NCBI GenBank assembly: GCA_963772165.1
Contig: CAVYWA010000010.1
Location: 45,496 to 109,495, forward strand
Direction: 5' to 3'
Origin: an uncultured Bacteroidota bacterium
GTDB taxonomy: Bacteria > Bacteroidota > Ignavibacteria > UBA10030 > UBA8401
Length of the DNA stretch: 64,000 nt
The notes beneath the pieces are model-generated. The model saw nothing but the letters and a program-made list of their open reading frames with translations, did no database searches and had not been told where the DNA came from. Within the stretch, counting starts at the first letter, position 1. Each line of letters begins with the position of its first letter. The translations under genes and the position numbers were made by a program. Below, piece by piece: positions 2,501 to 47,793 of the stretch.

Positions 2501-3682
2501 GTGACTAATACAATCAGGACCGGTATGTTTGAAAAAGAGACTGAACAACTTATCGCGACGGTCCGTCAGGCAACGATCGGCGAAACCAAAGCCATCGGCT
2601 TGAGGGAGATTTTCGAATCGAATATCCTTTCAAACGTGAAGGTGTTTTTCCGTGCTGAAGTTGAGTGGATGCTCGAGACGGAGCGAAAACCGGAACCGCG
2701 ACCGTCGAAATTCAACTATAATCTCCCCGAGATTGCAATGCTGCGCGAACAAACCAACGCGCTGCTCATCCACAATTTTATTTTTTCAAAAGCTGATTTC
2801 GAAGCAACGCTGGATAAATGCGTCCACTTTTTGCTGAATTATCTCTGCCGTCCCCAGTGGACGTTGAACAGTTTTCTTTTTGAGGAGTCGGCACGGGCTT
2901 CGACGCAGCAAATCCTGTTGAAGCTCCGATATTGCAGGGACTATGCATACTTCCCGGATATCCTCCGCAGCTATCTTCAACAACGCGGCGTTGGAGAGAT
3001 GACGCTGGAGGAAGGAAAAAACCTTATCGCACGAATCGATGCCGAGGTTGTGAAAAACCATTCGAGTATAGAACTCGCCAAGATAACGCTGCCGTTGTTC
3101 GATTTTGTTGCGTATGCGCGGGCACACAACATGAGCGCCACCGCCAAAACAGTTCCGGCCCGGGCATTGATGTACTTTTTCGAAGACAAAAAAATTGGAG
3201 CGATGCACGAGCGGCTATCGCGCGAGCGTGAAGTGAACAATGTCAAAGAATTGAGCTACGGTCAGCTCGTCAACCTTCTCGAAAAAGTCCGGAGCGGCGA
3301 CGAGCACGCTCACGTTTTTGATGAACATGCCGAACCCCTGCCGGCACTTGACGATATTTCTCTCGATATGCCATCGCTCTCCCAGATAGTACAGGAAGAG
3401 GAAATGACCACCCCGAAACCGTCAGAACCGCCGAAACCCACCCCTCCTCTTTTTTCGCTCGAAGAAGAACGCACCATCATCAAACATGTCTTCCACCAGA
3501 ACGAAGAGCAATTCCAAGCTGCGGTAAAAGAAGCGCTGGCCGCTGCAACATGGGAAGACGCGGCGCTTTCGATCGACCATTTCTTTCTGATGAACGATGT
3601 GGAAGCGTTCTCAAAAGAAGCAATCCTTTTTACAAATAGAGTGCAAAGCAGATTTAGCGAAGGAGTAAAGAATAAATCCTAA
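2501..3682 (+). CDS. hypothetical acidic protein (393 aa), no recognised domain
   Basis: long ORF in codirectional gene string; no motif recognised by eye. Confidence 0.4.
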   Translation: MTNTIRTGMFEKETEQLIATVRQATIGETKAIGLREIFESNILSNVKVFFRAEVEWMLETERKPEPRPSKFNYNLPEIAMLREQTNALLIHNFIFSKADFEATLDKCVHFLLNYLCRPQWTLNSFLFEESARASTQQILLKLRYCRDYAYFPDILRSYLQQRGVGEMTLEEGKNLIARIDAEVVKNHSSIELAKITLPLFDFVAYARAHNMSATAKTVPARALMYFFEDKKIGAMHERLSREREVNNVKELSYGQLVNLLEKVRSGDEHAHVFDEHAEPLPALDDISLDMPSLSQIVQEEEMTTPKPSEPPKPTPPLFSLEEERTIIKHVFHQNEEQFQAAVKEALAAATWEDAALSIDHFFLMNDVEAFSKEAILFTNRVQSRFSEGVKNKS

Positions 3683-4137: not shown

Positions 4138-5127
4138 ATGTTTATCGATTCGGCAAAAATTTTTGTTCGATCCGGCAGCGGGGGCAACGGCATTATTCAT
4201 TGGCGTCGCGAAAAATACGTCCCGAAAGGCGGCCCTGACGGGGGAAACGGCGGCAAAGGAGGCAATGTCATTATCCGGGCAGAGAAGCAACTTACGACAC
4301 TTCTCGATTTCCGTTACAAGCGGCGATACATTGCACAAAACGGCAATCCGGGAGAAGGTTCAAATATGGAGGGACGATCAGCCCAGGATATTTTGATAAA
4401 GGTTCCGTGCGGAACGATCGTGAAAAACAGTATCACCGGCGATCTCATCGGCGACTTGGTCGACCACGGCACTGAAATTGTCGTTGCCAAAGGAGGACGC
4501 GGCGGAAAAGGAAATTCAGAATTCGCGACGTCGACCAACCAGGCACCGCGCATCTGTACTCCGGGCGAAGAAGGAAAAGAATTTAATCTTGATCTGGAGC
4601 TGAAACTTCTTGCAGATGTCGGATTGGTAGGGTTTCCGAATGCCGGAAAGTCGACTCTGATCTCTAAAATTTCGGCGGCAAAGCCGAAGATCGCCGATTA
4701 CCCTTTCACAACGCTTGTGCCGAACCTTGGGATGGTCTATTTTCAGGAAGGAAAAAGTTTTGTTGTCGCGGATATTCCGGGCCTCATCAAAGGCGCGCAC
4801 GAAGGCAAAGGACTTGGAACGCAATTTCTCCGGCACATCGAACGAACAAAAGTGCTCGTGTATCTGGTTGAATGTACCAGCCCTGACCCGAAAAAAGATT
4901 TCGCGACATTAGCGGGCGAACTGAAATCGTTCAACAAAGACTTACCGAAGAAGCCGACGCTTGTGGCGTTTACCAAGCTCGACATCGCCGACACAGCACT
5001 CCGCAAAGCTCTCAGAAAAATCAAGTTCCGCAAAGGAATTTCCGTGCATTTGATTTCTGCCGTAACAGGCGAAGGACTCGACGGACTGGTTGCCGCCATG
5101 TGGAAAGCACTGGAAAAGAAGAAGTAA
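4138..5127 (+). CDS. obg: GTPase Obg/CgtA
   Basis: N-terminal FIDSAKIFVRSGSGGNG...GGPDGGNGGKGG glycine-rich Obg fold, G-motifs GFPNAGKST, DIPGLI. Confidence 0.9.
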   Translation: MFIDSAKIFVRSGSGGNGIIHWRREKYVPKGGPDGGNGGKGGNVIIRAEKQLTTLLDFRYKRRYIAQNGNPGEGSNMEGRSAQDILIKVPCGTIVKNSITGDLIGDLVDHGTEIVVAKGGRGGKGNSEFATSTNQAPRICTPGEEGKEFNLDLELKLLADVGLVGFPNAGKSTLISKISAAKPKIADYPFTTLVPNLGMVYFQEGKSFVVADIPGLIKGAHEGKGLGTQFLRHIERTKVLVYLVECTSPDPKKDFATLAGELKSFNKDLPKKPTLVAFTKLDIADTALRKALRKIKFRKGISVHLISAVTGEGLDGLVAAMWKALEKKK

Positions 5128-5160: not shown

Positions 5161-5310
5161 GTCATTGCGAGTCCTCGCCGAGTCGAGTCTTCGACCGATG
5201 TTCCTTATCGGGCCGAAGTCCCGAAGGGATCCCGTACAGCGGGACAATCCCCCCGTTAAATAAAGGATTGCTTCGCTCCGATCCTCGCAATGACTTTATT
5301 CTTCAAAAGA
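5161..5310. repeat. MITE/REP-like hairpin-rich intergenic element, copy E1 (TIRs gtcattgcgag / ctcgcaatgac)
   Basis: shares ordered blocks gaagtcccgaagggatcccgtacagcgggacaatcc ... ggattgcttcg ... ctcgcaatgactttattcttcaaaag with copies at 37.3 kb, 47.7 kb (inverted) and 48.6 kb. Confidence 0.6.
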
Positions 5311-5371: not shown

Positions 5372-6424
5372 ATGAAATCAACCAAACGCGATTCGGACTT
5401 CACGGCGCCGGAACGGCTTGATAATGAGACCGAGTTCGATCATGCACTCCGTCCCTCGGCTTTTCGTGAATTCGTCGGACAGAAAAACATTGTCGATAAT
5501 CTGAAGATTTTCATCGCTGCGGCGAAGCAACGGAACGAATCGCTTGACCACGTGCTTCTCACCGGTCCCCCGGGGCTGGGAAAAACCACGCTCGCCTACA
5601 TCATCGCCAATGAAATGGCTGCGGATATTAAAATTACGTCCGGGCCGGTTCTTAATAAGCCCGCTGACCTCGCCGGCGTATTGACGAATCTCCAGGAAGG
5701 CGATGTCCTCTTCATCGACGAAATCCACAGGCTCAATTCTGTTGTGGAGGAATATTTGTACTCGGCGATGGAAGAATTCCGCCTGGACATCATTATTGAT
5801 GCGGGGCCAAGCGCCCGCAGCATCCAGCTCTCTCTTCCGAAATTTACCCTCGTCGGTGCAACAACGCGTGCAGGCCTTCTGACAGCGCCGCTTCGTGCAC
5901 GATTCGGTGTTACAAACAGACTCGACTATTATTTGCCCGACCAGCTCTCTACGATTATCAAACGCTCCGCTGACATCCTAAAAATTGAGACCGAAGAAGG
6001 GGGCGTTGCAGAAATTGCCAAGCGATCGCGCGGAACACCCCGCATCGCCAACCGCCTGCTGAGGAGGTGCCGGGATTTTGCGGCGGCCGACAAAAGGCTT
6101 GCTCACTATCATAACATCGTCACCAAGGAAGTCTCCGAACACTCGCTTCGCGCCCTGGAAGTGGACGACCTCGGCCTCGACGAGATGGACAAACGCATTC
6201 TGCGGACCATTATCGAGAAATACGACGGCGGTCCGGTGGGTGTGAGTTCCCTTGCTGTCGCCGTCGGCGAAGAACCGGGAACTATTGAAGAAGTGTACGA
6301 GCCGTTCCTGATCCAGGAAGGGTTCATTAAAAGAACACCGCGCGGGAGAGAAGCGACCGCGATCGCGTATAAACATTTTGGCATAACGAGAAAAAAAATC
6401 GTCCAGGAAAATCTCGGTTTATGA
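5372..6424 (+). CDS. ruvB: Holliday junction branch-migration ATPase RuvB
   Basis: Walker [21 protein letters not shown]-terminal winged helix; 350 aa. Confidence 0.9.
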
Positions 6425-8184: not shown

Positions 8185-8772
8185 TTGAAAAAGCTCCCCC
8201 GCTCATTTTACACCCGCCCTGCCCTTCTCGTCGCAAAAAACCTCCTTGGAAAAATCCTTGTACGTAAAAACGGAAAAAAGATTCTCTCCGGAATGATCGT
8301 CGAAGTTGAAGCCTATGGCGGCGCGAAAGATCCGGCAAGCCATGCGTACCACGGAAGAACAAGACGAAACGAAGTCATGTTTCGCGAGGGGGGATATTTG
8401 TACGTTTATTTTACGTATGGCATGCACTTCTGCGCCAATGTTGTAACGGGAAAAAAAGACGCCGGTGAAGCCGTGTTGATCCGAGCCGTTGAACCGGTTG
8501 CCGGAATGGAAGTGATGAAAAAAAACAGGCGCTTTGACAAAAGCGCAGGAACGATGCATACTCTGACCAACGGTCCGGCAAAATTATGCCAGGCGTTTGG
8601 CATTAAAGGAAAAGACAATGGAATCGATTTGCTCGGCCACGAGATTTATTTGACAGCTGGAAAGCCAATTCCAAAATCGAAAATTGGAATTTCAACTCGC
8701 ATTGGAATCTCGCGCGGGAAGGAAATGCAATGGAGGTTTTTCATACTAGAAAACAAGTGGATATCAAAGTAA
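8185..8772 (+). CDS. DNA-3-methyladenine glycosylase (Mpg/AAG family)
   Basis: FYTRPALLVAKNLLGKILVR...VEVEAYGGAKDPASHAYHGRTRRNEVMF...GYLYVYFTYGMH motifs; TTG start. Confidence 0.8.
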   Translation: MKKLPRSFYTRPALLVAKNLLGKILVRKNGKKILSGMIVEVEAYGGAKDPASHAYHGRTRRNEVMFREGGYLYVYFTYGMHFCANVVTGKKDAGEAVLIRAVEPVAGMEVMKKNRRFDKSAGTMHTLTNGPAKLCQAFGIKGKDNGIDLLGHEIYLTAGKPIPKSKIGISTRIGISRGKEMQWRFFILENKWISK

Positions 8773-13049: not shown

Positions 13050-13544
13050 TTATTTATTGCCTCTCGCGGCAAACTGTCGATCCATCATGATCAAACTCAC
13101 CGGCGAGTCGCCGACCATCTTCAATTGCTCGAGAATGTCCCCGGCGCTCTTCTCTTCTTCCAATTGTTCGGTGATAAACCATTCGAGCATGATCTGGGTC
13201 GGATAATCTTTTTCTTTGATGGCAAGCTCGTACAGCTTGTTGATCATTGCCGTTACCTTCTGCTCATGTTCCAGCACCTGTTTGAATACATCCATCGGCG
13301 ATTTAAACTTTGCATGCGGCTTCTCGATCGTTTCCAACTCGACGTGTCCGTTCCGTTCGATCACGTAGCCATAGAATTTCATCGCATGGCCGTACTCTTC
13401 CATGCTCTGCACTTTCATCCAGCTGGCAAAGCCGGACAAGTTGGACTCGGCGCAATAGGTAGACATTGCGAGATACAGATATGATGAATACAATTCCTTG
13501 TTGATCTGGTTGTTGATTGCATCCTGAATTGATTTGCTAAGCAT
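13050..13544 (-). CDS. ftnA: ferritin (Ftn-like, non-heme)
   Basis: ferritin four-helix di-iron motifs [12 protein letters not shown]...[10 protein letters not shown]...EHEQKVT. Confidence 0.8.
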
Positions 13545-18135: not shown

Positions 18136-19644
18136 ATGCGCACGCACATGATCAAAGCTTTTTCTCTTGCCGGCTGCCTCTGGCTTCTGTTCGTTTTCCC
18201 GTTAGCCTCCCAGCCGAAGTCCATTACCATCCTTCATACCAACGATATTCATGCAAATTTTATTCCGCATGAAGCAACGTGGATCAGGGAAACCCCGAAG
18301 CCGATGGTAGGAGGAATAAACGAACTCTCGTTTGCACTCGACAGTATCCGGAAGATAAACAATGCGACATTGTACCTCGACGCGGGAGACATCATGACGG
18401 GAAACCCGATTACCGAATACGAGTACAAAGGCGCCCTCGGCGGAGCCCTTTTTGAAATGATGAACATGATAGGATGTGAAGCGTGGTGTCTTGGAAACCA
18501 TGACTTCGACCTTGGCCAGCAAAATCTTCTGAAGCTGACGGCCATTGCAAAATTTCCGACACTCTCGGCGAATGTCGTGAACGACAAGAACGAATACCCG
18601 GTGAACAACAAGCCGTACGTCATCATTGAGAAGAACGGATTGAAGATCGGCATCATCGGCGTCATGTCGCAGGGATTGTACAACTTAGTGAATCAAACGA
18701 TGCTCGTCGGAATCAAAGTCCTTTCACCGGTGGAAACGACTCAAAAATTTATCGATGAGCTGCAGACCAAAACGGATCTGATTATTGCCTTAACCCATGA
18801 AGGCGTGGATGACGACTCCGTGCTCGCGATGAATGTCCACGGCCTGAACATTATTGTCGGCGGGCATTCACACACGCGATTGAAAAAGCCGAAATTCATC
18901 AACGGCGTGATCATCGTGCAGACCGGCTCGTACTGCGAAAACCTCGGCGTGCTTGACGTGACAGTTGAAAACAAAAAAGTGACCCAGTATAACGGCCAGC
19001 TTATTCAGCTATGGTACAACAGCGGCCGGCCGAAGACGGAAGTATCGACGTTCATCGACTCGGTGCAGCATGGCATTGAAAAAGACTACAGCCAGGTGAT
19101 CGGCACGCTGAAGGGAGACTGGATGCGCAACGACAACGGAGAATCCGGAATCGGCGATTTTCTTGCGGACGCACAGCGCGAAGCCGCTCATGCCGATATC
19201 GGTTTTATGAACAACGCCGGTATCAGGAAAAACCTTTCAGCCGGACCGATAACCAAACGCGACATCTTTGAAATACTCCCTTTTAGAAATATCTTGACGA
19301 CCTTCCAGCTGAGCGGGACTGAAGTAAAAACGATCGTCCTTAATTATATTGAGAAGCATGCGAGAATTCAGACATCGGGAATCCGGTGCGAGTGGAAACA
19401 CGGAGCGGACGGCAACACTGAGATCGTGAAGCTAGAGATCAACGGGAAGCCGTTCGATGAAAACGCAACGTATACCGGAGCGGCGAGCGACTATATGGTC
19501 GGCGAGGCAAAACGTTATCTCGGCGTCGAGATCCTCCATCCTATCTATCTCCAGCAGACAGTCTTCGAGTCGATAGAAAAGAAAGTGCAGGATGAAAAAG
19601 AAATCGAGTCAAAGATAGAGAATCGTTTTAAAGAAGATAAATAA
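18136..19644 (+). CDS. 5'-nucleotidase / UDP-sugar hydrolase-like metallophosphoesterase (UshA family), secreted
   Basis: signal peptide; ILHTNDIHA, GNHDFD, GGHSH calcineurin-like motifs plus C-terminal 5'-nucleotidase domain. Confidence 0.8.
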   Translation: MRTHMIKAFSLAGCLWLLFVFPLASQPKSITILHTNDIHANFIPHEATWIRETPKPMVGGINELSFALDSIRKINNATLYLDAGDIMTGNPITEYEYKGALGGALFEMMNMIGCEAWCLGNHDFDLGQQNLLKLTAIAKFPTLSANVVNDKNEYPVNNKPYVIIEKNGLKIGIIGVMSQGLYNLVNQTMLVGIKVLSPVETTQKFIDELQTKTDLIIALTHEGVDDDSVLAMNVHGLNIIVGGHSHTRLKKPKFINGVIIVQTGSYCENLGVLDVTVENKKVTQYNGQLIQLWYNSGRPKTEVSTFIDSVQHGIEKDYSQVIGTLKGDWMRNDNGESGIGDFLADAQREAAHADIGFMNNAGIRKNLSAGPITKRDIFEILPFRNILTTFQLSGTEVKTIVLNYIEKHARIQTSGIRCEWKHGADGNTEIVKLEINGKPFDENATYTGAASDYMVGEAKRYLGVEILHPIYLQQTVFESIEKKVQDEKEIESKIENRFKEDK

Positions 19645-19769
19645 ATCACGTCATCTGAAACAATGTGTCTCGCCAAGCCGCAGAGACGGGAAACTCTCAA
19701 TTTGCGACTTTGCGCGGGCTTCACTTCTGGGTTTATTCAGAAATCTCAAATCATACATACAGCTCTCTT

Positions 19770-20484
19770 ATGAACAGCACACACTTTCCAATCCTCATCA
19801 TCACCGGACGACCGGCCGCAGGAAAATCGGAGGTCATCGATTTTCTTAAAAAAACCAACGCAAAAGAACGGCTCGAGCGATTTCATATTGCCGACTTCGA
19901 GGAACTCAACGATTTTTTTGTACGTGTGGGAATCGTTTGAGATTGACGACATCCTGAGCAGGAACGGCAAGCCGCGTGTCTGGTCGGACGAAAAATATTG
20001 GTTCAAAGACCATTTCACCTGGAATCTGTACATCGAACGCATCGGCCTCGAGTACCGGAAGAAGCTGGCGCGAAACCCGAAGTATCACGACACCATGACG
20101 ACGTTAGTGGAATTCGCCCGCGGCGGCGATCATGGCATCTACGAAGCGTTGACATACATGCACGAGGAAATTCTGAAACGCGCTGCCCTGATGTATATCC
20201 GCGTCTCGTACGAGGAGTCGTTGCGTAAGAACCACCGGCGGGCGCGAAAGGGACAAGAAGATTCGATTCTCTACCATTCACTTCCCGATGAAAAGATGGA
20301 ATTTTACTACAAGACAAACGACTGGGAGAAACTCGAAAAAAAGGACCCGAACTACATCGAGGTCAAAGGGTTCAAAATCCCTTACGCGTCATTTGAAAAT
20401 GAGCCGGAGAAAACGCTGGATCCGTCACTGATCGGGAAAGAATTGGAGCGGGCGACGACTACACTGTGGGAGATGAAGAAGTGA
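19770..20484 (+). pseudogene. P-loop NTPase/kinase-like protein interrupted by a frameshift in a T7 run (~19912..19918)
   Basis: ORF 19665..19940 (Walker A ITGRPAAGKSEV) continues in +1 frame as 19888..20484; junction at gattttttt homopolymer. Confidence 0.45.
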
Positions 20485-20491
20485 ACCCATA

Positions 20492-21185
20492 GATGACCGT
20501 CACCTTAAAGGTGACGGTCATCTATCATTGAACAAAACCGTTTTGATTTTCTCCCTTTCTTGTGGCACGTAATCTTCAACAAAACTCTTATAATTTTTTA
20601 AACCTCCAAACTGATGTAAAACTATCTGCAACGTGATAATGGGATCCAGCCGCAAACCGAAATATGTCCGGCAGCTGCTGTGCGGCCATTCTTCTGGTAA
20701 ATCGACCAAGCAAGCTCGAACGGGATTCAGGTGGATATAACGGGACAGATGAACCAAGTACAAGTCGTTATCGATATGCTTCATCTTGTATTTCCCTTCA
20801 AACAAATGTCCGCTTCGAGAACGTTCTTTGTTGATTGCTTTCGCATAACCATCGCATACATTTCTCATGAAACCTGAAATTCCGAAAGGTTCAAGCTGAT
20901 AGATAATGAAGTGAAAATGGTTCGGCATCAGGCAATATGCGATAATTTCTATTGAAGAAGGATTGTTTGCTTCCAACATTCGCTGCCGAAAATAGAGAAA
21001 GTTACGCTCATTAAAAAAGATTTCGTTCTTGTTAACGCCCCGATTATACACATGGAAAAATTCATCCGCCGATTGTAGATCCTTTGTTTTCGTTGACATG
21101 AATACTTCCCCCGAGTTAATTCAAAGCGACCATCGTTTTACGATGTGAAATCCAGATGACCGTCACCTTAAAGGTGACGGTCATC
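20492..21185. mobile_element. IS200/IS605-like element: Y1 transposase bounded by identical 31-bp perfect palindromes
   Basis: gatgaccgtcaccttaaaggtgacggtcatc at 20492..20522 and again at 21155..21185. Confidence 0.75.
20518..21099 (-). CDS. tnpA: IS200/IS605-family (RAYT-like) Y1 HUH transposase
   Basis: HVYNRG ... CLMPNHFHFII (HuH) ... RYIHLNPVRA (catalytic Tyr region); 193 aa. Confidence 0.8.
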   Translation of the reverse strand: MSTKTKDLQSADEFFHVYNRGVNKNEIFFNERNFLYFRQRMLEANNPSSIEIIAYCLMPNHFHFIIYQLEPFGISGFMRNVCDGYAKAINKERSRSGHLFEGKYKMKHIDNDLYLVHLSRYIHLNPVRACLVDLPEEWPHSSCRTYFGLRLDPIITLQIVLHQFGGLKNYKSFVEDYVPQEREKIKTVLFNDR

Positions 21186-21201
21186 TTATGGTAACGGCAA
21201 G

Positions 21202-22276
21202 TTAAAAAGCTTCTGTAATCGTAAAATACAATCCGGAAGAATTGCTGCCAAAACCAGCATCGAACCGGAGCGCGATGCGTTCCTGAGTGTTCAAAACAAA
21301 ACGAATCCCTGCGCCTCCCGAAAATTTGAATTCATCGAGACTCCAGCGGGACATTTTGTCTGCCACTTGAGCAACCCCGGCAAATCCAACGACTCCGAAC
21401 CGCCACCACACCGGAATTCTGTATTCAACCTGCCCGCCGACCTCGGTCTTATCCCGGGTACTGTCCGTCAAAATAACCGCGAAGAAAATCCTGCCCCCCA
21501 AAATGAGCTAAGTCTTGAAACGGCGCTGTGCCGTCAATGATTTGCGCGGTTACTTGTAATGCAAGAATCTGTGAGGGAAACATCTCAAAAAAATTACGCG
21601 CGTCGACTTCCACATCGTTGTAATTAAAATCGCTCCCCAACGATTTGCCGTTCACAACCGCCGTTACCTGATAAAAGCTCCCTGAATGAGCGGCAAAGGT
21701 ATTGTCGCGTGAATCCCAATTTGCTACGACGCCGGCCCCCGCCACGTTCCCGCCTTTGCTCCCGGGAATCGTTCCGGACTCGAGAAGCCCTCCCGGCTTG
21801 GTCTCGATAATCGATGCGGACTCGAACTGGAGTTGCGGCCCAAGATTAAACCTCGAATAGATTTCCCGATAGAGAACGATTTTCCCGAACAATGACTTCG
21901 AGGTATAGCTTTCCCGCGCACTGGACGGAACGTTATTGCCGATCCCATAAAAACTGTTCGGAAAATTTTTATACCACGTGTCAGCCAATAATCGGTACGC
22001 GCCGTCATCAAAATATAAATCACCGTTGAATTCGACAATAACCTGTTTTTTCTCCGTGTAAATGACATCTCCGGTGATATCGGATGCTCTGCTCTCCCGA
22101 AAAGCGGTATCACGGTAAAGATAGATTGCGGCAGCACCGCCGGCAAAGCCGGTTTCAGGAGTGTAATAAAATATCGGTAGAGGATAGATTCCCGTCCGCT
22201 TTATGCCGAGAGTATCGTTTTCAAAATTTTGCGCGAACGACGGAAGCGATAACAGCACATCGATGATAATGGACAA
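21202..22276 (-). pseudogene. Omp85/D15-family outer-membrane beta-barrel protein split by frameshift in a C6 run (~21490)
   Basis: N-part 21449..22276 ends ...FGGQDFLRGYFDGQY; C-part 21202..21501 ends with beta-barrel signature GLYFTITEAF. Confidence 0.5.
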
Positions 22277-22467
22277 AACAATAAATGATCACGCGGGTTA
22301 TCGTTTTCATTATCCACTATGTGAAAATTCTTCGCTTACCATGAAGGGGTCCGGCATCTTGTAAAAACGAACACTACATTTTTTTGTTGGATGTATTGCG
22401 TGGTGGGGGTACTCTCCAAGCAGCCTCTATCAGAAGTGTCCAGTTCAATACCACAGCGCGCCGGCCA

Positions 22468-37279: not shown

Positions 37280-37500
37280 AGGTATTTTAGAATAAAGTTA
37301 TTGCAAGAAGAGAAGCAACAAAGTCCCCAAAGGATTCCTTACAGCGGGACAATCCCTTTATTCTTCAAAAGACCCCAGGTCGTGGGATCTTTTGAATCAA
37401 CGGTCATTGCGAGGCGTTTTTTGCCGAAGCAATCCCCATTAAACAAAAGGATTGCTTCGTCGCTCCGCTCCTCGCAATGACTTTATTCTTCAAAAGACCC
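37280..37500. repeat. mosaic of MITE/REP-like element fragments (copies E2a/E2b plus an inverted degenerate TIR piece) upstream of tRNA-Val
   Basis: 37321..37372 truncated copy; 37402..37500 near-complete copy ggtcattgcgagg ... ctcgcaatgactttattcttcaaaag. Confidence 0.6.
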
Positions 37501-37621: not shown

Positions 37622-37696
37622 GGGCGCTTAGCTCAGCTGGTTCAGAGCGTACGCCTCACACGCGTAAGGTCGCAGGTTCGATCCCCGCAGCGCCCA
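37622..37696 (+). tRNA. tRNA-Val (anticodon CAC)
   Basis: cloverleaf folded by eye: acceptor GGGCGCT/AGCGCCC, D-arm GCTC/GAGC, anticodon stem TACGC/GCGTA loop CTCACAC, T-loop TTCGATC (one A-C mismatch in T-stem), discriminator A, no encoded CCA. Confidence 0.85.
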
Positions 37697-47687: not shown

Positions 47688-47793
47688 ACTTTGAAGAATA
47701 AAGTCATTGCTTCTCCCGCTCGAAGAGCGGGAGAAGCAATCCCCATTTAAAAAATGGATTGTGCCACTGTACGGGATCCCTTTGGGACTTCTG
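47688..47793. repeat. MITE/REP-like element copy E3 (inverted orientation)
   Basis: reverse complement reads gaagtcccaaagggatcccgtacagtggcacaatcc...ggggattgcttc...gcaatgactttattcttcaaag. Confidence 0.55.

Follow-up and report, generated by a model that had tools for sequence, protein, structure and literature searches.

Single-copy, vertically inherited genes for REP-associated tyrosine transposases (RAYTs) that are flanked by repetitive extragenic palindromes (REPs), an arrangement known as a REPtron, are well established, as is the location of REPs at the 3' ends of genes and occasionally within them (PMC2817692, PMC5581495, PMC3733652, PMC6006769, PMC8266576). The REPtron of Escherichia coli, made up of the nuclease TnpA-REP (also called RayT; structure 4ER8; Group 2 of Bertels and subclass 2.2 of Quentin) and of REPs and bacterial interspersed mosaic elements (BIMEs), has a single-copy gene for an HUH/Y1 enzyme with the signature Y---NP, flanked by cognate REPs that are also dispersed at gene 3' ends. 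Here, we describe an element that resembles it in its enzyme and its flanking hairpins, the latter being dispersed at gene 3' ends in related genomes. The element lies in a stretch of 64,000 nucleotides from an uncultured Bacteroidota bacterium of the class Ignavibacteria (UBA10030; UBA8401; GenBank assembly GCA_963772165.1, contig CAVYWA010000010.1, positions 45,496 to 109,495), referred to below as the window, and consists of a RAYT gene bracketed by two hairpins. It is probably a REPtron: a domesticated, single-copy RAYT between cognate 33-nt REPs that would bind the extruded hairpin and cut and rejoin DNA through tyrosine Y121, acting in trans. Systems of this kind are already known, and the element is not a recently inserted jumping gene.

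A predicted class 2 RAYT between two perfect hairpins

The open reading frame (ORF) between the hairpins carries the motifs HFHFII and YIHLNPVRA; its HUH motif is H61-F-H63, its catalytic tyrosine is Y121 within YIHLNP, and a tail motif follows at W138..S141 S142. A reading of the window made by a model from the sequence alone (hereafter the sequence-only reading) had assigned this frame of 193 residues to the Y1/HUH family and had set it in the context of RAYTs and REPs, and both assignments are borne out. Y1_Tnp is the only Pfam match (residues 23-123; 37.5 bits against a cut-off of 23), and the Pfam search returned no match to a helix-turn-helix (HTH) domain. Homologues number more than 5,800, are named “REP element-mobilizing transposase RayT” or “transposase” in their sources, and fall into clusters almost all of which are single-contig. 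Across an alignment of 40 of them, H61, H63, N125, P126, W138, S141, and S142 are invariant, as is the catalytic tyrosine that the sequence-only reading had picked out, and the motifs NH[FY]H, F100-[EQ], and Y[IV]HLNP are also seen.

The closest match in both sequence and fold is E. coli TnpA-REP. A phmmer search of the PDB with the single RAYT sequence returned no match; a profile built from the 40 homologues matched 4ER8 with an E-value of 7.6e-10 over residues 1-144, compared with only ~3e-3 over ~50 residues for TnpA of ISDra2, an insertion sequence (IS) of the IS200/IS605 family. The AlphaFold2 model (predicted local distance difference test, pLDDT, 94.3; predicted template modeling score, pTM, 0.90) has only short C-terminal helices, and a Foldseek search with it placed 4ER8 first (E 2.3e-7; TM 0.62/0.72; 154 columns). 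The TnpA proteins of IS608 and ISDra2 are significant matches as well, but with 104-105 columns for the best-superposing matches (root-mean-square deviation 2.5-2.9). In the classification of Quentin et al. (2018, Table 1; PMC6006769), Y---NP is the signature of class 2 (TnpA-REP) and Y[IV]ENQ that of class 1 (IS200). By its HUH and Y---NP motifs, and by its nearest relatives in sequence and predicted fold, the protein is a class 2 RAYT/TnpA-REP.

The gene is tightly enclosed by two copies of one palindrome. The 31-nt sequence GATGACCGTCACCTTAAAGGTGACGGTCATC, which the sequence-only reading had found at both ends, matches exactly at 20492-20522 and 21155-21185, with no such occurrence predicted by 100 shuffles. 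The stems listed in Table 1 (17 and 15 bp, each with a 3-nt loop) include the outer A-T pair and the loop-closing T-A pair; if that closing pair is not counted, the + strand loop of both hairpins is TTAAA. The downstream hairpin begins 4 nt past the stop (20484) of a convergent gene for a P-loop protein, and the RAYT stop codon (20518-20520) sits within it. The upstream hairpin lies 54 nt 5' of the RAYT ATG and 15 nt 3' of the stop (21202) of an Omp85-family gene. Folded as single-stranded DNA, either strand of the hairpins gives -17.3 to -18.9 kcal/mol (z ~ -9.6), and perfect stems of at least 12 bp were absent from 20 shuffles of the window. There are two copies of the 33-nt hairpin in the window, both flanking the RAYT gene, and the RAYT gene itself occurs there once. 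An intrinsic terminator scan of 19600-22400 called neither hairpin, and the sole Rfam match in the window at the gathering threshold was a tRNA.

Fixed position and purifying selection

The order major facilitator superfamily (MFS)-Omp85-hairpin-RAYT-hairpin-P-loop hypothetical-5'-nucleotidase is kept in L120, L121, and L122/L123 (L numbers denote loci from other assemblies), in which the RAYT protein is 93%, 80%, and 70% identical, respectively, to that of the window; L121 is a 4.2-Mb contig. A further locus, L082 (RAYT ~80-85% identical), aligns over the RAYT gene, the sites of the two hairpins, and the adjacent portion of the neighbor gene on each side. In all of these, both hairpins occupy orthologous positions, with cores that are identical or differ by 1-3 mismatches. 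Pairwise synonymous divergence (dS) among the syntenic RAYT orthologues reaches 1.3-2.0, so the arrangement has persisted through saturating synonymous divergence, and the ratio of nonsynonymous to synonymous divergence (dN/dS) is 0.09-0.28. The gene is therefore under purifying selection; it is single-copy in the window, vertically inherited, and evolves in a housekeeping-like manner.

These results overturn the claim of the sequence-only reading that the unit is intact and recently active, which had been drawn from the identity of the two hairpins: four related genomes have the unit at this very site, even where protein identity falls to 70% and dS exceeds 1. In a locus conserved for so long, the hairpins of the window are identical because of constraint, or of homogenization, and not because they are recent.

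In a second lineage (L204, L206, and L207), the RAYT (63-56% identity) has a fixed site of its own, GH92-RAYT-amylase/MeaB. In L082 (6365-6945; metagenome-assembled genome [MAG] CAWGZY01, MFD01689.bin.1.50), a frameshift divides the RAYT so that tblastn aligns it as two segments, and the downstream hairpin has 3 mismatches; either the system is decaying in that genome or this is a further long-read error of the kind considered below for the neighbor genes.

Dispersal of the hairpin in other genomes

We scanned one genome per species with the 25-nt core GACCGTCACC-N5-GGTGACGGTC and obtained at least 119 genome loci; the window's genome is absent among the matches listed. About 25-30 core matches in high-GC actinobacterial and similar genomes were set aside as chance occurrences that lie in coding DNA and have no outer stem. 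The non-actinobacterial copies number at least 95, in at least 41 assemblies whose labels include Ignavibacteriales/Ignavibacteriae, Bacteroidota/Bacteroidetes, Chitinophagaceae, Caldithrix, and Zixiibacteriota, as well as Anaerolineae, Thermoflexales, Caldilineaceae, and Chloroflexia. Individual MAGs hold several copies each (at least 13 in JACPGG01, at least 10 in JACQBK01, and at least 5 in both JACIWQ01 and JBFMDF01).

Palindrome and transposase had been read as one mobile unit, and palindromes apart from the transposase had been named as an outcome that would refute this. In related genomes, the palindromes do mostly stand without the gene: a RAYT homologue lies within the fetched locus at only 5 of the 119 hairpin-core loci among the matches listed. 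JACPGG01 has its own RAYT (L204), flanked by the same arms, in addition to its dispersed hairpins, and so links the enzyme and the dispersed repeat in one genome. The RAYT genes of L204-L207 are likewise bracketed by copies of a palindromic repeat. More widely, of the 63 homologue loci whose flanks are long enough, 27 have a palindrome on both sides of the RAYT, as do most of the subset with proteins of ~185-200 aa. The hairpin core also flanks a RAYT that is only 37% identical (L038), and metagenomic homologues of 37-52% identity have flanking palindromes that differ in sequence and keep the 15-bp stem, the 3-nt loop, and the A...T arms.

By crude ORF calls, and among the matches listed, the hairpins fall between tandem genes in 47 cases, convergent genes in 21, and divergent genes in 1, with 20 inside ORFs and 16 at locus edges. 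Thus 68 of the 69 classified intergenic sites are tandem or convergent, and by the same calls dispersed hairpins are usually ~2-30 nt from a stop codon.

Anatomy and covariation of the repeat

The general plan of the repeat is A-N13-T / 3-nt loop / A-N13-T, and its consensus is A-N-N-T-GACCGTCACC-T-nnn-A-GGTGACGGTC-A-N'-N'-T. In the non-actinobacterial set of at least 95 copies, taken without prior selection, pairing reaches 99, 94, 93, and 87% at positions 1-4 of the outer stem and 93% at the loop-closing T-A. Stem positions 2-3 vary (GA, AG, GG, CG, GT, AT, and others) and the partner always changes to match, a covariation that keeps the stem. Beyond the stem, 91 copies show no conserved 5' tag (A at -5 reaches 52% at most), no GTAG-type unpaired 5' tag or bulge in their consensus, no conserved tail, and no enrichment in T at positions +5 to +12. 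Dispersed copies at orthologous sites (L014/L032, L024/L106, and L006/L086) have identical stems (100%) between flanks of 69-76% identity, and their loops differ. At another orthologous site (L059 1571-1603 and L091 700-732; flanks 89%), the stems are identical and the loop is exactly reverse-complemented (TCACA vs. TGTGA), as might happen if the two arms recombined or if the element was excised and inserted anew.

The 15-nt arms are near-palindromic in their own right (form 7+1+7), with at least 5 of 7 self-pairs in 28 of 34 distinct arms compared with 1.7% of shuffled arms. The 33-mer of the window can thus be written as four heptamer half-sites, AGATGAC-C-GTCACCT taa AGGTGAC-G-GTCATCT. Pairing is perfect between the arms and imperfect within them, which favors the long hairpin as the selected structure. 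Repeat units nearly always occur in pairs, with a spacing between centers of 18 nt in 107 cases and 31-32 nt in 8 among the matches listed, and the top and bottom strands of the hairpin differ in the middle loop base only.

Two further forms of repeat were seen in the second lineage. A long-spacer variant, with the two 15-nt arms unchanged (AGGTGACCGTCACCT ... AGGTGACGGTCACCT) and a 16-19 nt A/T-rich spacer instead of 3 nt, occurs upstream of the RAYT start at syntenic sites in L204 (2930-2985), L206 (2930-2985), and L207 (2915-2965 and 3590-3640); these RAYT-upstream copies are among the pairs with 31-32 nt between centers. L207 also has an unrelated perfect palindrome, ATCCCCGTTTTCT tag AGAAAACGGGGAT, three times in 2.2 kb (3650-3678, 4584-4618, and 5791-5829); it follows the same A...T, 3-nt-loop plan and adjoins a RAYT whose flanks bear GACCGTCACC arms, which suggests that there are two REP families in one genome.

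In-frame copies and the search for empty sites

The 33 nt of the repeat make up 11 codons, two of the three frames are open, and copies that lie in frame within genes read (x)DRHL(E/Q/K)GDGH(L) (Table 1). The four copies in a repeated domain of secreted proteins lie at the same domain position (..NNYGFEIERRA-[insert]-AWxKIGFVEGNGT..) and come from three different MAGs; the insert either spread with the domain or entered a preferred target site. The window's own orthologue of the Mpg-type glycosylase (8197-8769) has no hairpin insert.

In an all-against-all BLAST of hairpin flanks aimed at empty sites, each alignment that spanned a hairpin also bore the hairpin. The comparison of filled with empty sites that the sequence-only reading had put forward as a means of defining the insertion target therefore yielded no clean pair. 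In both comparisons of filled with unfilled genes (L047 with the Mpg gene of the window, and the methyltransferase genes of L038 and L040), the hairpin stands in place of a variable linker instead of being added cleanly, and neither a target site nor a footprint could be derived from them.

Table 1. Coordinates of the RAYT gene, its flanking hairpins and neighbor genes in the window, and of in-frame hairpin copies in other loci
Feature	Sequence	Coordinates	Strand	Details
RAYT/TnpA-REP-type HUH-Y1 nuclease gene	Window	20518..21099	-	Intact, 193 aa; Pfam, profile, fold, dN/dS
Downstream REP hairpin	Window	20489..20525	n/a	ATAGATGACCGTCACCT-taa-AGGTGACGGTCATCTAT; perfect 17-bp stem, 3-nt loop
Upstream REP hairpin	Window	21154..21186	n/a	AGATGACCGTCACCT-taa-AGGTGACGGTCATCT; perfect 15-bp stem, 3-nt loop
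P-loop gene, split	Window	19665-19940 / 19888-20484		Frameshift at ~19913
Omp85-family gene, split	Window	21449-22276 / 21202-21501		Frameshift at ~21456
In-frame hairpin, repeated domain of secreted proteins	L050	5210-5242		
In-frame hairpin, repeated domain of secreted proteins	L058	1664-1696		
In-frame hairpin, repeated domain of secreted proteins	L076	2575-2607		
In-frame hairpin, repeated domain of secreted proteins	L118	2526-2558		
In-frame hairpin, orthologous pair	L021	6619-6651		
In-frame hairpin, orthologous pair	L067	3034-3066		
In-frame hairpin, Mpg-type glycosylase	L047	4772-4804		
In-frame hairpin, methyltransferase	L038	182-214		

Proposed activity and points against it

If the element works as a REPtron, its activity can be sketched by analogy with E. 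coli TnpA-REP and IS608 TnpA. The hairpin would extrude where DNA is single-stranded, for example on the lagging-strand template, and the RAYT would bind the extruded stem. By the same analogy, H61 and H63 would hold a metal ion, and Y121 would cut single-stranded DNA beside the hairpin through a 5'-phosphotyrosine link and then rejoin it. Acting in trans on hairpin copies elsewhere, the enzyme may spread or maintain them, as is envisaged for the spread of REPs by RAYTs in general. Copies would persist mainly just 3' of genes, where they would be harmless and might mark the 3' ends of transcripts. The two copies that flank the gene would be ancestral ends, a site at which the RAYT binds its own locus, or both.

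Several observations weigh against a REPtron that mobilizes its repeats. The RAYT subfamily is known from sequence and predicted structure alone, and the only NCBIfam match of the protein, to REP_Tyr_transpos (NF047646), scores 68.5 bits, below the curated cut-off of 80; this equivalog model evidently covers a narrower group. The characterized TnpA-REP enzymes are strand-specific by virtue of a tag, a bulge, or loop bases (PMC8266576), while the hairpin of the window is so symmetric that strand discrimination by its RAYT seems unlikely. About 105 kb of the window's lineage (the window, L121, and L122) holds only the copies that flank the RAYT, although this is compatible with the hairpin densities seen elsewhere. 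Mobility is not documented by any clean pair of filled and empty sites, and the lasting presence of dispersed copies at orthologous sites would be explained equally well by a host function and by slow transposition.

Alternative explanations

The main rival to the REPtron takes up this last point. It holds that the 33-mer is a conserved cis element, for example a protein-binding site or a structural mark in RNA or DNA at gene ends, and that the RAYT binds, processes, or homogenizes it with little or no transposition. We judge this improbable, even though much of what we observed would suit it: stems at orthologous sites that are wholly kept between flanks of 69-76% identity, a core shared by RAYTs as distant as that of L038 (37%), purifying selection on the RAYT genes, the lack of a clean insertion polymorphism among the sites compared, and near-palindromic arms such as a dimeric double-strand binder would recognize. 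The strong variation in copy number between genomes, from at least 13 to at least 1, is harder to accommodate, and the in-frame copies in unrelated genes (an Mpg glycosylase, a methyltransferase, and a secreted-protein domain) look like insertions. Further, compensation is seen between the arms and not within them, which favors a hairpin over a duplex operator.

Two other explanations fare much worse. A recent and active autonomous IS of the IS200/IS605 type, with the identical palindromes as its subterminal left and right ends, would account for an intact HUH/Y1 gene of the Y1_Tnp family tightly bracketed by identical hairpins, and for the significant fold matches to the TnpA structures of IS608 and ISDra2. 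It is nevertheless very unlikely, because in relatives that have diverged to dS 1.3-2.0 the gene and its two hairpins occupy the site that they have in the window, the 64-kb window has no second copy of the unit, the tyrosine motif is the class 2 YIHLNP and not the class 1 Y[IV]ENQ (PMC6006769), and TnpA-REP is the closest match in sequence and fold. In addition, the ends are identical perfect palindromes where distinct, imperfect left-end and right-end hairpins would be looked for, and most hairpins (all but 5 of 119 loci among the matches listed) come without a RAYT. Synteny by itself largely refutes an active IS, and the IS200/IS605 label given by the sequence-only reading fails with it, as it does on the Y---NP motif and the symmetric ends. 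That the hairpins are ordinary terminators or attenuators of the neighbor genes, identical by an accident unrelated to the transposase gene, is an explanation we regard as scarcely credible. Stable stems, the position of both window copies a few bases past gene stops, and the almost exclusively tandem or convergent sites elsewhere would suit terminators; against them, the stems are not followed by a T run and neither is called by the terminator scan, the 25-nt core is identical across at least 41 assemblies of several phyla, unlike terminators, RAYT homologues with other palindrome sequences are flanked on both sides in the same way, and some copies lie in frame inside genes.

Relation to described REP and RAYT families

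In E. coli, the REP palindrome is imperfect and bulged, needs an unpaired GTAG on its 5' side, and is processed strand-specifically (PMC8266576), whereas the stem of the window hairpin is perfect over 15 bp and almost symmetric between the strands, the loop has 3 nt, and no 5' tag is conserved. The proteins differ in their motifs as well (NHFH / FE / YIHLNP in the window and DHLH / WE / YIHYNP in E. coli). An unpaired 5' GTAG at the foot of the hairpin characterizes the GTAG-type REPs of Groups 2 and 3 in general and is not present in the window family; perfect palindromes as such are already known from Group 3. The “double-foot” REPs of subclass 2.4 (Group 4) in Bacteroidetes, for example GTAGAGACAAGGC-att-GCCTTGTCTCTAC (Quentin et al. 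2018, Table S1), resemble the window repeat in being perfect palindromes (12-13 bp stems, 3-4 nt loops) that flank a RAYT of ~190 aa, and their host range overlaps, in Bacteroidetes and, as Bertels gives for Group 4, in Chlorobia and Caldilineae. However, double-foot REPs start with a GTAG that pairs with CTAC and go with proteins that have the motifs WQ and YIxNNP, unlike the window element with its FE/FQ and YIHLNP motifs, 15-bp stem, near-palindromic arms, and absence of GTAG.

In a comparison made by eye with Table 1 of PMC6006769, the RAYT of the window matches the second motif variant of subclass 2.1 (Bertels Group 1), that is, NH[YF]H, FQ, Y[IV]HLNP, and a proximal SS. Proteins of that subclass, however, have a mean length of 238 aa and a C-terminal HTH/DnaA_C-like domain, compared with 193 aa and no HTH match here. 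Its genes also differ from the window RAYT, which has canonical flanking hairpins, in that the authors found no adjacent REP-like sequences (PMC6006769); Table S1 of Quentin et al. (2018) lists one manually identified subclass 2.1 REP, in Granulicella.

Some likeness extends to other systems. In the TIRYT/TIRtron elements (Di Nocera et al. 2013), RAYT-like genes stand between moderately repeated, sometimes self-complementary or “double palindromic” repeats, and the TIRtron motif GGGGWSAS agrees with aGGTGAC of the window at 6 of 8 positions. The REP doublets forming hairpins (REPINs) of Pseudomonas, studied by Bertels and Rainey, pair a RAYT that is single-copy and inherited vertically with a population of palindromic, non-autonomous repeats, as here. 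Since a REPIN is a head-to-head pair of imperfect palindromes in one long hairpin, the window repeat resembles a minimal REPIN, although REPINs have ~100 nt, spacers of tens of bases, and hundreds of copies, compared with 33 nt, a 3-nt spacer, and at least 10-15 copies. With IS200/IS605 elements such as IS608 and ISDra2, the unit has in common the HUH/Y1 fold and the logic of a hairpin substrate in single-stranded DNA; it differs from them in belonging to class 2, in its fixed position, and in having no distinct left-end and right-end hairpins, tnpB, or multicopy behavior. We also considered the CGTC-tagged REPs, which are reported in Bacteroidetes and Chlorobi and have an unpaired terminal tag, an 8-9 bp stem, a 4-5 nt loop, a CCA tail, and no associated transposase (Di Nocera et al. 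2013). They were rejected, because the tetranucleotide CGTC, though shared, lies here inside the paired 15-bp stem, and the repeat is RAYT-associated.

A literature search with two 10-mers of the repeat returned only unrelated primers and similar matches, and GGTGAC and GTCACC are both absent from Table S1 of Quentin et al. (2018). We did not find the combination described, meaning this sequence, its untagged and nested 33-nt architecture, the clade of short RAYTs with subclass 2.1 motifs, and a core that crosses phyla. We mention, as a tentative and on balance doubtful proposal, that the 33-mer could form a REP class of its own: a “palindrome of palindromes” that is symmetric between the strands, with AGRTGAC-S-GTCAYCT twice and no GTAG or CGTC tag, and that goes with a clade of short RAYTs of ~190 aa whose motifs match those of subclass 2.1, the largest RAYT group. 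If this were so, the RAYT, probably a dimer, would read the two-fold symmetry of the stem on either strand, and the element would be maintained for a host role at gene 3' ends and not as a selfish transposon.

For annotation, the gene is to be called a RAYT/TnpA-REP with flanking REPs and not an active IS, and it has no bearing on recent mobility or on damage to its neighbors. The locus gives access to a large, little-described REP/RAYT family in lineages that are known almost only from MAGs, namely Ignavibacteriales, Bacteroidota, Anaerolineae, Caldithrix, and Zixiibacteriota. A substrate of 33 nt and an enzyme of 193 aa would make a compact model for how a Y1 nuclease handles a strand-symmetric hairpin, and the family could also show whether REPs are kept because they benefit the host.

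Neighboring genes and other repeats in the window

Both neighbors of the element are frameshifted, as had been stated from the sequence, and in each case a single base is inserted in a homopolymer run relative to intact orthologues in L120/L121. The P-loop gene has one additional base in a T run (GATTTTTTTGTA; 19905-19920), and the Omp85 gene has one additional base in CCCGGG (21450-21460); L120 has a separate shift of its own in the P-loop gene. Long-read assemblies typically contain insertions of one base in homopolymers, and both frameshifts are probably sequencing errors and not real pseudogenes. The element is not the cause of the frameshifts, since relatives with this hairpin-RAYT-hairpin insert have intact neighbors.

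The only other perfect hairpin of such size in the window (47706-47740; 16-bp stem, 3-nt loop, ATTGCTTCTCCCGCTC gaa GAGCGGGAGAAGCAAT, framed by GTCATTGC...GCAATCC) is a member of the GTCATTGCGAG repeat family, which also occurs at 5161-5294, 13462-13472, and 37403-37481. The family forms inverted pairs at 5161/5284 and 37403/37471, the latter ~140 nt upstream of a tRNA (37622-37696), and no transposase for these repeats was seen in the window. The palindrome at the RAYT gene has a different sequence and is unrelated to this family, in agreement with the sequence-only reading. In L006 (~3545-3590) and L086, which are from MAGs of Anaerolineales/Chloroflexi, a GTCATTGCGAG...GCAATC element directly adjoins the 33-nt RAYT-type hairpin at an orthologous site, so the two repeat families co-occur far outside the window's lineage.

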